64,000 bases of DNA from Octopus vulgaris (taxonomy: Eukaryota): contig OX597816.1 of NCBI GenBank assembly GCA_951406725.2, forward strand, positions 97,340,001 through 97,404,000. Direction: 5' to 3'. The notes beneath the pieces are model-generated. The model saw only the letters and a list, made by a program, of their open reading frames with translations. It did not search any database and was not told the DNA's origin. The first letter of the stretch is position 1. Each line of letters starts with the position of its first letter. The position numbers were made by a program, and so were the translations under genes. Below are positions 24,421 to 58,397 of this stretch, piece after piece.

Positions 24421-24577
24421 GCACGTATATATATATATATATGTATCATATAATTAAGGGCTAAAGAGGGTTATTCTAAAGCCAATACACTGATTTATCC
24501 ACTTATAATCCGCTTGCTACAGGAGAATTGAAACTGAAAACGGGCAACTAACCTTTAGAAAATTTAAATTTCGTTAT

Positions 24578-24639
24578 CTCTATATTGAATCAATTTCGGA
24601 ATTAATCTTATAAAAAGATATATTCTTTCTTCAGTAGAG
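24578..24639 (-). ncRNA. Type I hammerhead ribozyme motif (left arm)
   Basis: Exact reverse complement of 24765-24826. Confidence 0.65.
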
Positions 24640-24764
24640 CTTTCGATGGGATATAAATAAAATACTCACGTATGATCATGGAAAAAGCACAAGCTAAAAC
24701 ATAACTACACTTGAGTACATCACTTATATCTAAAAATAAAAATTTATTTATATCCCATCGAAAG

Positions 24765-24826
24765 CTCTACTGAAGAAAGAATATATCTTTTTATAAGATT
24801 AATTCCGAAATTGATTCAATATAGAG
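24765..24826 (+). ncRNA. Type I hammerhead ribozyme motif (right arm)
   Basis: ctcta CTGAAGA [stem II gaat/attc and atctt/aagat, base imperfect] GAAA ttg att caa TA tagag. Confidence 0.65.
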
Positions 24827-25238
24827 ATAACGAAATTTAAATTTTCTAAAGGTTAGTTGCCCGTTTTCAGTTTCAATTCTCCTGTAGCAAGCGGATTATA
24901 AGTGGATAAATCAGTGTAATGGCTTTAGAATAACCCTCTTTAGCCCTTAATTATATGATGTTTATACTTCAACCGTAACGGTTTTTTTAAATATACTGCC
25001 CACGCTTCCTGATGGATTCTTTTTCTGTAGAGAAAGGGACTTCATCCTATATTGCTAGTATATATATATATATATAAATTGTATAATATAGCAGCATTTT
25101 CGAACTTCATTTTTTACAAATATATATATATATATATATATATATTTAAACATAATAATTAGTGGTTTGAGTTTTCTACTGCTCTTTCTAGCACAAGGCT
25201 TTCCTATTTGGAAGCCTCTTAATGTGTTCTAATGTACA

Positions 25239-30099: not shown

Positions 30100-30252
30100 C
30101 CTTGCTTTTCTCTTTTTTTTTCTGTGTCCCTGTCTGTAGAAGAGCGTAGGCTCGAAACCTAAAAGACTTTTTCTATTCCTGAGCGTTATACTAATACATC
30201 TGTTTGTTTTGTACACTACCTGTCTTCGTGTTTTGTTTTTTTCGTATACTCT

Positions 30253-30256
<4 letters not shown>
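30100..30256 (+). mobile_element. pLTR-like module with variant-core hammerhead-like motif (30130-30165), within (TA)n
   Basis: ctgt CTGTAGA a gagc gtag gctc GAAA cc TA aaag; second family member at 7198-7400. Confidence 0.6.
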
Positions 30257-30311
<55 letters not shown>

Positions 30312-30413
30312 GGAGTAAACACATAAATGTGAAACAAGGTGGAAAAAAGAGTACTCAAATACCAGTGGTAGAGTAATATGCTTTATTTTAAGCAGTAGAA
30401 AATTCAACAAAAT

Positions 30414-30451
30414 CTGTTACTCTGAGTTTCTCGTTGCCGTTCATCAGACAG
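30414..30451 (-). ncRNA. Minimal type I hammerhead ribozyme
   Basis: ctgt CTGATGA acg gcaa cga GAAA ctc a gag TA acag; core intact, near-palindromic stem III, stem II closing pair is an A-A mismatch. Confidence 0.8.
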
Positions 30452-30531
30452 TTTGTCTGATGAACGGCAACGAGAAACTCAGAGTATCAGATTTTGTTGA
30501 TGAACGGCAACGAGAAACTCAGAGTAACAGA
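30452..30531 (+). ncRNA. Tandem pair of minimal type I hammerhead motifs
   Basis: CTGATGA acggcaacga GAAA ctcagag TA at 30457-30486, repeated 40 nt later with a TTGATGA core. Confidence 0.7.
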
Positions 30532-30561
30532 TTTTGTTGAATTTTCTGCTGCTTAAAATAA

Positions 30562-30612
<51 letters not shown>

Positions 30613-31039
30613 AATCGATCTCCATACATATATGTGTATACGAACATGTGTGACCATACATACATGTCAGGTCATTTATGAGGCTCTCATAAGTGCTATT
30701 GGTAACATGGAATCCCTTACAACCTGTGGCATGGTCGGGTTTTCAGCGACTAAACCGGCAGCACCACCAGGCTACCCTGGTGAGGAGGATTGCTAGAAAC
30801 CCAGCAGGATTACTTACATACACACACACGCCCATATATATGTATATATATATATATATATAATAAATATTAGGGAATAAATCCAAATTTACAGGGAAAA
30901 AAAATCAGATTTAGGATTAAATCCAATTTTATAGTAAAATATTATATAATATTAATTAGAGACAAAACCACTATTTTGCAAAACAAACAAGGAAAGACTT
31001 AATCAATACATAAAATTTTAATAAAAAGTAAAAAAACCG

Positions 31040-31082
31040 CCACTACAATTGTTTCTTGTCCTGATCGACAATCTTCAGGTGG
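31040..31082 (-). ncRNA. Minimal type I hammerhead ribozyme, fully canonical core
   Basis: ccac CTGAAGA ttgtc gatcag gacaa GAAA caattg TA gtgg. Confidence 0.88.
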
Positions 31083-31142
31083 ATTTCCAATAAGTCAGTT
31101 TCAAATTATGAAGTCATAATTTGAAACTGACTTATTTGAAAT

Positions 31143-31185
31143 CCACCTGAAGATTGTCGATCAGGACAAGAAGCAATTGTAGTGG
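31143..31185 (+). ncRNA. Type I hammerhead copy with GAAA>GAAG substitution
   Basis: ccac CTGAAGA ttgtc gatcag gacaa GAAG caattg TA gtgg. Confidence 0.7.
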
Positions 31186-31269
31186 CGGTTGTTTTACTTT
31201 TTATTAAAATTTTATGTATTGATTAAGTCTTTCCTTGTTTGTTTTGCAAAATAGTGGTTTTGTCTCTAA

Positions 31270-31336
<67 letters not shown>

Positions 31337-35132: not shown

Positions 35133-35503
35133 ATGCTGACATCCGGTGTCTGTGCAAGACCCTGCCTCAGTTAAGTTGGACTCAAGAGTCATCTTCGTAT
35201 TCATAAAGCGAGACAGACGAGTGACAACCTGGCTACTGGTGGTGGTGTTACACACCATACTAATCATATCTGTCGGGCATGTAGAAGAGAGTGTAATTCG
35301 GCAGGAGGACTTAAACGACATGCAAAGGTACATGAAGCCCAGTTACAACTACAGCCAGCTATTGCCGGTAAAGTTTTTAGCTGCCAATTCTGTACAAGAC
35401 ATTGTAGGTCTTTAGCTGGGCTAAAAAATCATATTTGATCACAGCACCAATAACAGTTAAGCTTCGTGGAATGGTCATGCCCGATAATGAGGGGGCAGCC
35501 ATT
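35130..35503 (+). mobile_element. 5'-truncated RTE-like LINE 3' end encoding three tandem C2H2-type zinc fingers (pseudogenised)
   Basis: One frame 35130-35453: SGVCARPCLS*VGLKSHLRIH, CRACRRECNSAGGLKRHAKVH, CQFCTRHCRSLAGLKNHI*SQH; short 3' UTR; flanked by (TA)n. Confidence 0.7.
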
Positions 35504-36282: not shown

Positions 36283-36338
36283 TCATGATTTTACCAGACA
36301 TTGGTGTTGTAAGATATTAATAGTGTACCAGTTAATAA

Positions 36339-36872
36339 TTTAACAAGGTGTTGAGTTGCGCAGCTATTCGTGCATGGCTTTCACCAAATCTTTTGATCCG
36401 GTAGACTTGAATTCCATTTTACTCCCGGGGCCTTACAGTTGCTCATATTTGTTTTTTGCTGATTTTTTTTCACTTCATTAACTGAAATGACTAGTTATAC
36501 CTGTTTTGGAAAGACTACTGTTTGTTTTAGTTCTTGCAACTATTCAATATCCTTCTTGTGTTCCTTGTCTTTGCTCCAGATGTCACTCCAAAACATTTGA
36601 CTTTCAATGTTATCTGGTATCAACTTTTCATCTGTACATTCCATTTATTTCTTTCTAGAATATCTTCTAATCTACCCTGAATAACCTATTCTGGTGGTAA
36701 ACCTTCATTCTTTGGCCGTATCTTACCATCTTTGCTTTCTTTGCAACGAGTCGCCGTTTCAGTTCCTCCACTACTAATTTCAGGCTCTTCCTTTCAATAT
36801 TATACTTCCTTTTCAGCGACCTGCATTTTTGTTCACTTTTAAGTTCCCCTATCTCTTTTCGGTCTAACACAG
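36339..36872 (-). mobile_element. Inverted internal segment of an R4/Dong LINE
   Basis: Matches about 55418-55947 (LKRKYNI..VVEELK..HQNRLFRVD). Confidence 0.88.
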
Positions 36873-36879
36873 TGATTTC

Positions 36880-37545
36880 CTATTTGAAGTAGAAAAGTCA
36901 GGCTTGTGCAAACATATAGCACTATACAAGAAATTGAAAACGAATAACACTGAAAATAGGTAGGTAAAGACAACAATGCATGGTCACTTACATCGGGATG
37001 TTGAAGATAAGACAGACAGAGAAAAAACATGGTTGTGGATGACTAAAAGTGATTGAAAACCGGAAACGGAGGCATCGTCGAAAATAGGAAAGCAAAGATC
37101 CTATGGGATTTTATGATTCAGCGCGACAATGAGATAGATAATAGGAAGCCGGGCATAGTCTTGATTGAGAAAAAGAAAAAAACAAACTATGCTGGATTAT
37201 AGATATAGCATGCCCAGCTGGCAACAAGGTATGCGATATGGAAGAAAAAAAAGTTGAGAGATATGACAAGTTAGCTTGGGAAGTTAAGGAGTTGTGGTCG
37301 ATGAAAAATGTAGCAGTAGTACCAAAAATTGTCGGAGCCCTGGGAACAGTGAGCAAAAATTTCGAGAAGTACGTGGAACAAATAGGGGCTGCTATAAGAG
37401 TGGAGCACTTGCAGAAAACGACAATACTTCGGAAGGTGCTCGAAAAATAAGAGCTGTTGGCTTAGTTCACTGGTTGTGAATAGCTGACACTGTAGTACAT
37501 CACTAGCGTTAGAAGTTGTGCAAAGGCAATAATGATAATAATAAT
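36880..37545 (+). mobile_element. 3' end of an R4/Dong LINE with RLE domain and (TAA)n tail
   Basis: Matches about 57150-58060 with an internal deletion; IIDIACP..E..K..RY..L..E..VVPKIVGALG. Confidence 0.9.
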
Positions 37546-50454: not shown

Positions 50455-52766
50455 GAAAAGATTCGAAAACGACATTTCCACAAAAAGCTTATTTGGCAAG
50501 AGCGTATTCAACTCCAAATTCAGTTACTCAGGTCTTACACAGAATGCTTAAAAAAACCTTAACTTTGACAAGAATATCAAACCAACAAAAATCCAAAACA
50601 TCAAAGCAAAAGTATAACATGAAGACTATACTTGACATCGATACTACCACAGGAACTATCAAGCGAAAGTATGTGCTGAAGCTGCCCGCACAAAGCATAG
50701 TATGAAAAATGCGTTAGACAACATGTTAGAAAATCACACAAAAAATTTTTTTCCACTAAGATAAGGAAAATACCAGTTACAGTAAAGTCTGTCCCATCAA
50801 AAGAAGAGGTGCAGGAATTTTGGAATTTAATTTAGGCAGAAAGAAAAAGCATATACTAAAAAGCTCTTGGATTGATAGAATATCTACTGACTTAGACTCT
50901 TTAGAAGAGCAAAAGTGGGAGGGTATCAATGTAGGGGATATAATATCTGCTTTCAGGAAGTCAAGCAAATGGAAGTGTCCAGGAAAGGATACAATTACTA
51001 ACTTCGGTTTGAATGCCTTCCCAGAGAGTCATGAACTGCTAACAAAAGTTTACAACAATGTTTTGCGACAACCTAGTACGATTCCCTCTTGGCTAGTGAG
51101 TGGTGTTACATTTCTACTTCCAAAAATGAAGAAACAAATGAACCAAAAGATTATAGAACCAAACCTACTAAACAGTAATGTATAAAATACTAGCATCTGT
51201 CTTCCCTGAATGCACCTATAGTTTTTAAATAGAAAGTGGCATCTTCCATAATGAGTAAAAAATGTTAACGTTGGTCCTATGGTAGTAAAGATCAGCTACT
51301 CATCAATAAGAGGATCTTGGAAGATTGTCACAAACAACACAAAATCTTGTCGACAGCCTGCATAGGCTATAAAAGGCTTCTAATAGTCTACCATATAATT
51401 GGATTGAGAAATGTCTGGAAATTTATAAAATAGCACATATTCTGTGAAACGTCTTGTCTGTAAGTATGGAATAATTGAGAGCCACTCTGAATTTGAATTG
51501 TGATTATGAATCTCTCTAAGAATGTCATGTAAGAATATCATGTGGCATTTTCCAGGGTGATTCCATATTAGACTCCTCTTTTGTCTAGTTTTAATACCTC
51601 CCTCGATATTGCTCGTTGATGTACAATATGGCTATACAAGAAAACATCATACTCAGTAAAAACAAGCAAAGAGATACCTAAATGAATTCCAAATACAAAA
51701 AGTCCCTGACGAAGATGTACTGGAAAACATGCACAGAAAAAGCTAAGCATATGAAGACCCGTGCTAAAACTGCTGCCTTAGATATTCTTATTGGTAAATG
51801 GCAAGAAAATGGCAAAGAGAGCTAATAATACCGGTGTTGAAAAAGCCCTTACTCATCAATGGTTAGTGTCTGCTGGCTTAAAATCAGAGACAGAACGGTT
51901 TATCATAGCAGCCCAAGATCAATGGCTACCTACAAGGAGCTACTAGGCCAACATATTAAAGAACGGTAGTTGCCCAACGTGTAGTGTATGTAAACAACAA
52001 AATGAAACCATCTATAATCTTGTTTCCATGGGCAGTCTTCTTGCGCCAACGAAGTTTCACAACAGGCACAATAGAGCAGTACAGTATATTCACTGGGTAA
52101 TTTGCAAAACCTTGGACCTGCCCCATGATAAAAACTGGTTGGAACACAAACCACCTCCAGTCCTTGAAAACGACAACATCTCACTCCTCTGGAACTTCAC
52201 CGTTCACATTGATAAAAAGATAGATGCGAATAGACTAGACATTGAAGGACTTCTGACAAAAATTATGCTTCCTCATTGATATGACAGTCCCAACTGAGAT
52301 AAATGTATATCAAGACCTACCAAAAACTGAGTAAGTATAAAGATCATGAAATAGAAATTGGAAAATGTTGAACCTCAAGACAAATACAATAGCTGTTGTC
52401 ATAGGAACCCTAGGAATGATAGCAAAAGGGGCTGATTGCTATTAGTTCAGATAACAGGAAATCCTAAAATAGCAGAGATTCTAAAAATAGTAGAGCTCAT
52501 GGAAATTGTCCATATCCTACGTAAATTACTGTCTATGTAAGCTTAAATTATAAGACAAACTTATAATTTTCTTGTGTTTTTTAAACATTCTCTAGAACAA
52601 TACTTTGTGCAAAACCAAGTTTATGGCATAATACCATAATACTAACCTGTCATAATACCAACTTGAACTACTAACTTGTCTCGTGAGGTCTCTCGGGGAG
52701 ACTTGGAGTCCAGTTATGCAAATACAAAGCAAAAGTCAAGCATATAATAATAATAATAATAATAAC

Positions 52767-54471: not shown

Positions 54472-58397
<3,926 letters not shown>

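Follow-up and report, generated by a model that had tools for sequence, protein, structure and literature searches.

Head-to-head truncated repeats bearing minimal hammerhead motifs, with a 40 bp tandem duplication, in a (TA)n tract of Octopus vulgaris

Results

A 254 bp fold-back between two dinucleotide tracts

The window analyzed here, i.e., the whole 64,000 nt stretch of Octopus vulgaris DNA, has a GC content of ~35%, is rich in microsatellites and holds no long clean reading frames near the feature under study. That feature is a 254 bp island (30310-30563) lying between a (TA)27 tract on the left (30256-30309) and an (AT)23 tract on the right (30564-30609), both delimited with TRF. The left tract is the likely insertion target, to judge also from the loose ends of related contigs before 30313 (see below). 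The island is built of two inverted arms. The left arm (30310-30454, minus strand), bounded by contig loose ends at 30313 and 30454, derives from an abundant repeat family: it is a 3′ portion that has lost its 5′ part but whose 3′ terminus, on (TA)n, is complete. The right arm (30498-30563, plus strand), recognized from the inverted repeat, is an inverted copy of the same family that ends just past AATAAAG on (AT)n. Comparison of the arms shows a tail-like 3′ extension of 71 nt in the left arm only (30310-30380, minus strand), and the left arm carries an AATAAA (30382-30387, minus strand) 31 nt 3′ of the predicted hammerhead cut site. The arms are joined head to head around a 3 nt centre (30451-30453), as defined by the inverted repeat: 46 of the 47 nt at 30404-30450 and 30454-30500 match across this spacer, as do 65 of the 66 nt at 30381-30446 and 30498-30563, where the one mismatch falls at 30396. 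The predicted fold of the whole island has an energy of -128.6 kcal/mol (z -16.8). A window-wide search of all 64,000 nt returned no family copies outside 30310-30563, and the reading frame that runs across the island (30319-30537) has no Pfam match.

Three minimal hammerhead motifs

Three hammerhead-like motifs lie in the island, one on the minus strand (30447-30418) and two on the plus strand (30457-30486 and 30497-30526); the fold-back arrangement of one minus-strand and two plus-strand copies described in an earlier sequence-only reading of this DNA is indeed present. The motif reads, in order, CUGAUGA, A, CG-GCAA-CG, A, GAAA, CUC-A-GAG and UA, with cuts predicted after 30418 on the minus strand and after 30486 and 30526 on the plus strand. 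The minus-strand copy (30414-30451, predicted cut after 30418) is a minimal type I hammerhead motif with an intact core. Its stem I is the 4 bp CUGU/ACAG (30451-30448 with 30417-30414); the core CUGAUGA starts at 30447 and is followed by stem II (CG-GCAA-CG, 2 bp, with an A on each side), then by GAAA, the palindromic stem III ACUC-A-GAGU and a GUA cut-site triplet. Plus copy 1 (30454-30497) has an intact core, CUGAUGA at 30457-30463, and its own predicted cut site after 30486; a private A>T at 30487 puts a U.U at the first stem I pair, adjoining that cut site, and this is the stem I mismatch that had been attributed to the copy. Plus copy 2 (30497-30533) keeps a GUA cut site (after 30526) and the 3′ strand of stem I, with a core that lacks C3 in register. 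The type I core (C3-U4-G5-A6-N7-G8-A9, G12-A13-A14, A15.1-U16.1, H17) is complete in the minus copy, in copy 1 and in a hybrid core formed by the two plus copies, whereas copy 2 departs from the consensus at the missing C3.

The palindrome ACUC-A-GAGU can form an 8-pair intermolecular duplex of -7.4 kcal/mol, compared with +2.1 kcal/mol for the monomer, in which stem III closes with 3 bp around CAG as the loop. These values agree with the earlier assignment of the motifs to the minimal type I kind that requires a dimer; the accompanying statement that stem III cannot close in a monomer goes too far, since the 3 bp form is unstable but can close. The G10.1-C11.1 pair at the base of helix II is absent and replaced by A.A, which makes the case for an active ribozyme weaker. 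Lunse, Weinberg and Breaker reportedly treated the minimal hammerheads of metazoan Penelope-like elements in 2016. Our literature search for a hammerhead with a mismatch at 10.1-11.1 found no paper, and that study or the supplements of others may cover it.

The hammerhead motifs are real and well above chance. A descriptor consisting of the core, a palindromic stem III of at least 3 pairs with a centre of 0-1 base and three of four stem I pairs found six motifs in the window, all of them within three fold-backs; plus copy 2 fails this descriptor. Over 200 second-order Markov simulations the mean was 0.04 (192 simulations with none and 8 with one), a control that is lenient because the descriptor was written once the motif had already been seen. 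Rfam hammerhead models gave no match at gathering scores across the whole window and none among the 61 matches at E<=10 in 30200-30700; they missed the hammerhead motifs of the neighboring fold-backs too. The Rfam miRNA-family matches at E<=10 were all under the gathering score and are due to the hairpin and (TA)n, and a miRNA identity was rejected.

Neighboring fold-backs and other repeats

With microsatellites masked, two unrelated hammerhead fold-backs with motifs in both arms were found within 7 kb of the island. Neither shares long sequence with it, and their presence indicates that this architecture is routine in the region. The fold-back at 30953-31272 (palindrome 30949-31276) has 163 nt arms with 3 differences around a 2 nt centre and ends on (TA)n at 31273. 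It belongs to a different family, and its motif is more canonical than that of the island, with a CUGAAGA core, a 5 bp stem II and a fully palindromic stem III, ACAAUUGU, with a 2 base centre; its plus copy has GAAG for GAAA. The fold-back at 24445-24959 (24438-24966) represents a third family; its arms are 224 nt long and flank a centre of 81 nt. Both arms hold a hammerhead (24634-24583 on the minus strand, 24770-24821 on the plus strand), with a CUGAAGA core, a long stem II and the stem III AUUGA-U-UCAAU.

Older inverted repeats that are 75-85% alike and have no hammerhead match (28302-28526/29635-29858, 29166-29347/29511-29675 and 19684-21539/22756-23943) probably belong to other families. 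When 150 of the window's 175 non-repetitive frames were scanned with Pfam, GIY-YIG had no match and RVT_1 had one weak match, 26 kb from the island. The RVT_1 match (56355-57050, E 1.4e-4, below the cut-off) lies in a decayed non-LTR retrotransposon at 54764-58048, followed by (AAT)n at 58049 and with related pieces at 36338-37527 and 50760-52279; this element may resemble those of the R4/Dong type. At 35175-35435 (plus strand), 4.6 kb from the island, weak C2H2 zinc-finger matches below Pfam cut-offs may mark an exon or fragment of a host gene.

The 40 bp duplication and its two hybrid cores

A 40 bp tandem duplication (30458-30537, plus strand) with TGA microhomology at 30458, 30498 and 30538 was delimited by TRF (period 40, 2.2 copies) and by repeat comparison. 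The two copies, 30458-30497 and 30498-30537, are identical at 39 of 40 positions and differ at 30487 vs 30527, so that the duplication is as the earlier reading had described it. TRF detected no further 40 bp arrays of the island family in the window.

In a double hammerhead, each core is made up of the CUGANGA and GAAA of one copy and the cut site of the other. The two plus copies can be combined in two such ways. In hybrid core A, which joins the core of copy 1 to the site of copy 2, every core nucleotide is present, stem I has 7 consecutive pairs (30450-30456 with 30527-30533) and stem III has 8 pairs with a central A.A. Core B, which joins the core of copy 2 to the site of copy 1, holds both defects, the lost or changed C3 and the U.U. 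If U30497 is taken as position 3, the second stem I pair of core B is U.C, and if the register is shifted one base further, there is no C3 and the first pair is U.U.

Copy 2 as a C3>U variant with its own stem I was rejected on register: with U30497 at position 3, its opening two stem I pairs would be the mismatches G.A and U.C, and stem I pairs only after a shift of one base, in which C3 is gone. The C3>U change reported for copy 2 is better read as a loss of C3 at the duplication junction. As this junction falls on the TGA microhomology (TGTCTGA at 30454, TGTTGA at 30495 and 30535), the slip itself most likely removed C3, and the duplication likely arose by microhomology slippage. Excision of a 40-mer needs both cores and both defects fall on core B; therefore at most one cut is predicted, after 30526. 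The proposal that the duplication could supply a partner in cis is supported, with one hybrid core complete and the second defective. The further proposal, release of a 40 nt unit, is not supported, because release takes two cuts and both defects are on the same second core. On this model, the duplication leaves one of the two possible cutting sites intact and the 40-base unit is not expected to be released.

Predicted folding of the duplicated copies

The double stem III is predicted to form with a pair probability of 0.97 in the 89 nt RNA 30448-30536. Constrained folding, which excludes tertiary contacts, protein help and kinetics, gives the active fold of core A a probability of 0.03-0.05 in RNAs running from 30448/30450 to 30533/30536. 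This value drops ~10-fold or more once 30540 is included and reaches 2-4e-5 once the RNA extends to 30563; on the other side, it is ~1e-9 or lower if the RNA starts at 30440, about 1e-11 with 8 more left-arm bases and about 1e-44 in the whole island. For the monomers, the probability is 1e-4 (intact minus copy) or 7.5e-7 (copy 1). The duplication raises the probability of an active fold some 100- to 300-fold over the monomer, and does so only for RNA that starts at the hairpin tip. The active fold is thus predicted to be masked by the fold-back once flanking sequence is present. The antisense arm is transcribed first on either strand, so a read-through RNA would form long dsRNA rather than an active ribozyme.

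The repeat family in public sequencing runs

Of 24 listed runs, 20 contain words of the island, each with a share of 0.45-0.60 (the highest being 0.60 of 20 words); they come from 8 studies and carry five organism labels. None of them is listed as RNA, and X15-X20 are possibly RNA runs. Contigs were compared at 80% likeness for four of the 24 (X1, X2, X3 and X17, with organism labels A, B, C and A), and contigs matching the island numbered 12,302, 3,507, 4,468 and 471, respectively. To the left of 30313, 79, 47, 80 and 14 contigs of these runs have loose ends with (TA)n followed directly by CCA, which places the 3′ end of the family on (TA)n exactly where the island begins. Loose ends past 30454 read TTGCTAG on the plus strand in 66, 49, 50 and 8 contigs, which indicates that family copies carry their own upstream sequence at the point where the island turns into its inverted arm. 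When this continuation is paired by eye with 30404-30417, stem I reaches ~12 pairs over 13 positions, including two G.U pairs possible on the hammerhead strand alone. The motif therefore belongs to a more extensive fold of the family, truncated in the island, and an extended stem I with strand-specific G.U pairs supports a real RNA motif.

The contigs also contain arm-to-arm joints at differing breakpoints, as seen in 14 of the 15 joints listed (of 49), each in 1-2 contigs and with 20-29 letters on the short side. Variable joints of this kind fit what head-to-head insertions at other loci would give. Position 30440 shows no variant at or above 3% in the four runs, i.e., A is fixed, and the sense base at 30431 is A or, at 18-37% of summed depth, G. 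The A.A/A.G base of stem II thus looks like a trait of the family and not decay of the island. The A-A closing mismatch listed earlier as a caveat is this pair. The alleles at which the family varies (30389, 30413 and 30431) are common to both arms, the arms differ by one base each and, at 30396, the left arm alone departs from the family. Shared alleles together with single-base differences fit one young insertion event.

Short hammerhead duplications were seen in two further single contigs. One from X1 runs from 30537 back to 30499 with 16 other letters, which makes a unit of ~55 bases and restores the family stem I strand; its U4 is replaced by C, and its 3′ breakpoint (30537) coincides with that of the island duplication. 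One from X2 crosses 30495-30497 with 5 inserted letters and gives a duplication of ~43-45 bases. Such duplications therefore recur, with a different junction every time, and may be more than chance events. Among the pieces listed for the four runs, no contig spans the whole island or the duplication junction, and such contigs can show presence but not absence. Summed depth, which is not copy number, was 80, 41, 135 and 0 at 30495 (X1, X2, X3 and X17); for the minus-strand hammerhead the corresponding figures were roughly 1.3 million, 0.4 million, 1.0 million and 30,000. Over plus copy 1 no depth can be read, as the contigs there match more than one place. When viral_contigs and metagenome_contigs were scanned for exact patterns of the hammerhead or of the 3′ end, each gave 0 loci.

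Discussion

Probable origin of the island as a Penelope-type relic

We consider it quite probable that the island consists of the head-to-head, 5′-truncated ends of an abundant hammerhead-bearing family inserted into (TA)n, likely by one Penelope-like event, together with a 40 bp duplication, likely slipped, that is predicted to permit at most one cut, usually hidden by the fold-back. The family is likely a Penelope-type terminal repeat, an assignment drawn from its architecture. The hammerhead lies near the family 3′ end, as in the terminal repeats of Penelope-like elements, with the predicted cut site 108 nt from 30310 and AATAAA at +31. Inverted 5′-truncated copies, one-sided tails of 30-40 bp and microsatellite targeting are described as typical of Penelope-like elements (Craig et al., 2021, PMC8557442). 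The island and the contig joints show the 5′-truncated copy with an adjacent inverted copy and variable breakpoints, and microsatellite insertion is seen both in the (TA)n on either side of the island and in the loose ends of the four runs. The one-sided extension measures 71 nt as against the 30-40 bp tail of these elements. No reverse transcriptase or GIY-YIG linked to the island family was found, the family having been read for 30 letters upstream of the hammerhead.

A sequence of steps can be proposed for how such an island might form. A Penelope-type reverse transcriptase/endonuclease would nick the (TA)n tract and copy uncleaved family RNA from its 3′ end, with copying stopping just upstream of the hammerhead core, within stem I. 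A fold-back or template switch would then write the inverted copy, ending 71 bases short of the family end. Finally, a 40-base slip between TGTTGA (30535-30540) and TGTCTGA (30454-30460), either during copying or in later replication, would have duplicated most of the hammerhead and dropped C3. That the template was uncleaved RNA is suggested by the retention, in both arms, of the whole core and 3-7 bases upstream of it. Uncleaved RNA is reported as the main insertion substrate in vitro, and the same work describes cleavage at AT-rich sites and a hammerhead that cut only with its protein (PMC11167929).

Comparison with known hammerhead repeats

One close likeness is to the minimal hammerheads of metazoan Penelope pseudo-LTRs, as described by Cervera and de la Pena (2014, PMC4209133). 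These terminal repeats carry minimal type I hammerheads with a palindromic helix III; most occur singly in truncated form, and some as opposite-strand pairs lying close together. The island shares with them the type I layout with a CUGANGA/GAAA/UH core, the tiny palindromic helix III that needs a dimer, and the high copy number, mostly as truncated stubs with close opposite-strand pairs. In that account, G10.1-C11.1 is highly conserved and Penelope hammerheads cleave poorly even as dimers or trimers (PMC4209133). The island differs in its 2 bp helix II with an A.A/A.G base and no G10.1-C11.1, in the third, C3-less copy created by the 40 bp duplication and in that no parent ORF was found. In relation to the inverted insertions reported for EN+ Penelope-like elements (PMC8557442), the island has the same adjacent, inverted and truncated copy with an extension at one end, and the same microsatellite target with no readable target duplication. 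It departs from them in having no part of an ORF, an extension of 71 vs 30-40 nt and no feature that would assign it to a clade (Neptune, Poseidon, Nematis or Hydra).

The tandem pair also invites comparison with retrozymes. Tandem retrozymes are reported to derive from Penelope ends, with family lengths of 51-972 bp; to be counted as one, a repeat must have two or more units in succession, and the hammerhead must be complete in all of them (Li et al., bioRxiv 2026.07.22.740005). As in the non-LTR retrozymes described from animals (Cervera and de la Pena, 2020, PMC7229834; bioRxiv 2026.07.22.740005), the island has a head-to-tail repeat of a type I hammerhead that likely comes from a Penelope end. 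It differs from them in its 40 bp unit, compared with RNAs of 170-400 nt and families of 51-972 bp in these reports, and in having 2.2 copies with one complete unit, the pair lying inside a fold-back. Since copy 2 has no C3 in register and the 40 bp unit is below the 51-972 bp range, the island falls outside the retrozymes so defined. The double hammerheads of ASBVd and newt satellite RNA (PMC4209133; PMC6466107) offer another parallel, as there too the stems III are merged by a palindrome and the cores swap cut sites. Only one of the two island cores is complete, so that one cut and not the excision of a monomer is predicted.

Alternative explanations

One alternative is that suggested by the sequence-only reading: the duplication would act in cis as a functional double hammerhead, making both cuts and setting free a unit of 40 nt, in effect a nascent mini-retrozyme. 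In the second core, however, C3 is missing from the register and U.U adjoins the cut site, there are only 2.2 copies and the fold-back masks the fold. The C3-G8 pair is required in the Penelope hammerhead, where C3G and G8C were tested and U3 with G8 was not (PMC11167929); a natural U3 variant pairs with A8 (PMC4209133), whereas copy 2 keeps G8. We regard this outcome as extremely improbable, notwithstanding the double stem III probability of 0.97 in the 89 nt RNA, the known Penelope-derived tandem hammerhead repeats with family lengths down to 51 bp (bioRxiv 2026.07.22.740005) and the other short hammerhead duplications in single contigs. A more modest version keeps the Penelope-type stub and has the hybrid core cleave an actual transcript in vivo, after 30526; this might be one beginning at the hairpin tip or one that a protein unwinds. 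The hybrid core is complete, with 7 stem I pairs, an 8-pair stem III and a fold probability of 0.03-0.05, and a Penelope hammerhead has been reported to cleave only with its protein (PMC11167929). Such an RNA would have to start no more than a few nucleotides from 30448-30450, stem II has 2 bp and carries the A.A, and cleavage was reported in only one of nine predicted retrozyme dimers tested, the other eight being inactive (bioRxiv 2026.07.22.740005), all of which makes in vivo cutting very improbable.

The remaining alternatives concern the nature of the locus. A palindrome amid microsatellites is a place where assembly or consensus errors could arise, and Penelope-like insertions of this sort are said to trouble assemblies (PMC8557442); the 40 bp duplication might then be an artefact at the palindrome centre and the true locus a plain two-hammerhead fold-back. 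The difference between the copies at 30487 vs 30527 and the junction on microhomology are both expected of a real slip, and other short duplications were seen in independent contigs, which leaves an artefact unlikely. It is somewhat less likely still that the fold-back matters as a source of long dsRNA, whether for small RNAs against the family or for editing, with the hammerheads incidental. The 66 bp near-perfect stem (-128.6 kcal/mol, z -16.8) forms on either strand and its targets are abundant in the contigs, but any young inverted insertion folds in this way, two more lie within 7 kb, and the island locus bears no sign of selection or transcription. As for a palindromic non-autonomous DNA transposon of the MITE or foldback type, in which the likeness to a hammerhead is inherited or accidental, the long inverted repeat and TA-rich flanks are what one would look for. 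The inverted repeat is not terminal, given the 71 nt extra on the left; family copies run past the centre with non-palindromic sequence, arm-to-arm junctions vary and the hammerhead motif is well above chance, so this origin has next to no likelihood. The island is most likely an ordinary relic with a local duplication.

Significance

As found, the island is one of many hammerhead-bearing Penelope-type stubs, three of them within 7 kb, and by itself is of little import. Of wider interest is the possibility that a Penelope-type family has a 2 bp stem II with an A.A/A.G base and that the duplication is a natural half-active double hammerhead, in which the core of copy 1 would cut the site of copy 2 in cis within 89 nt. 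We think this improbable. With its A.A/A.G base throughout the family, the 2 bp stem II is a test of the extent to which the core can do without G10.1-C11.1, and the duplication is a ready natural cis construct with a stable stem III, in which the A.A/A.G variant can be assayed without engineering. If it were half-active, and if the other short duplications are true, they would together give a snapshot of retrozyme units of less than 50 nt being born from Penelope ends. If the duplication cut, it would illustrate the first step by which, on the route that has been proposed, a Penelope end turns into a tandem retrozyme.
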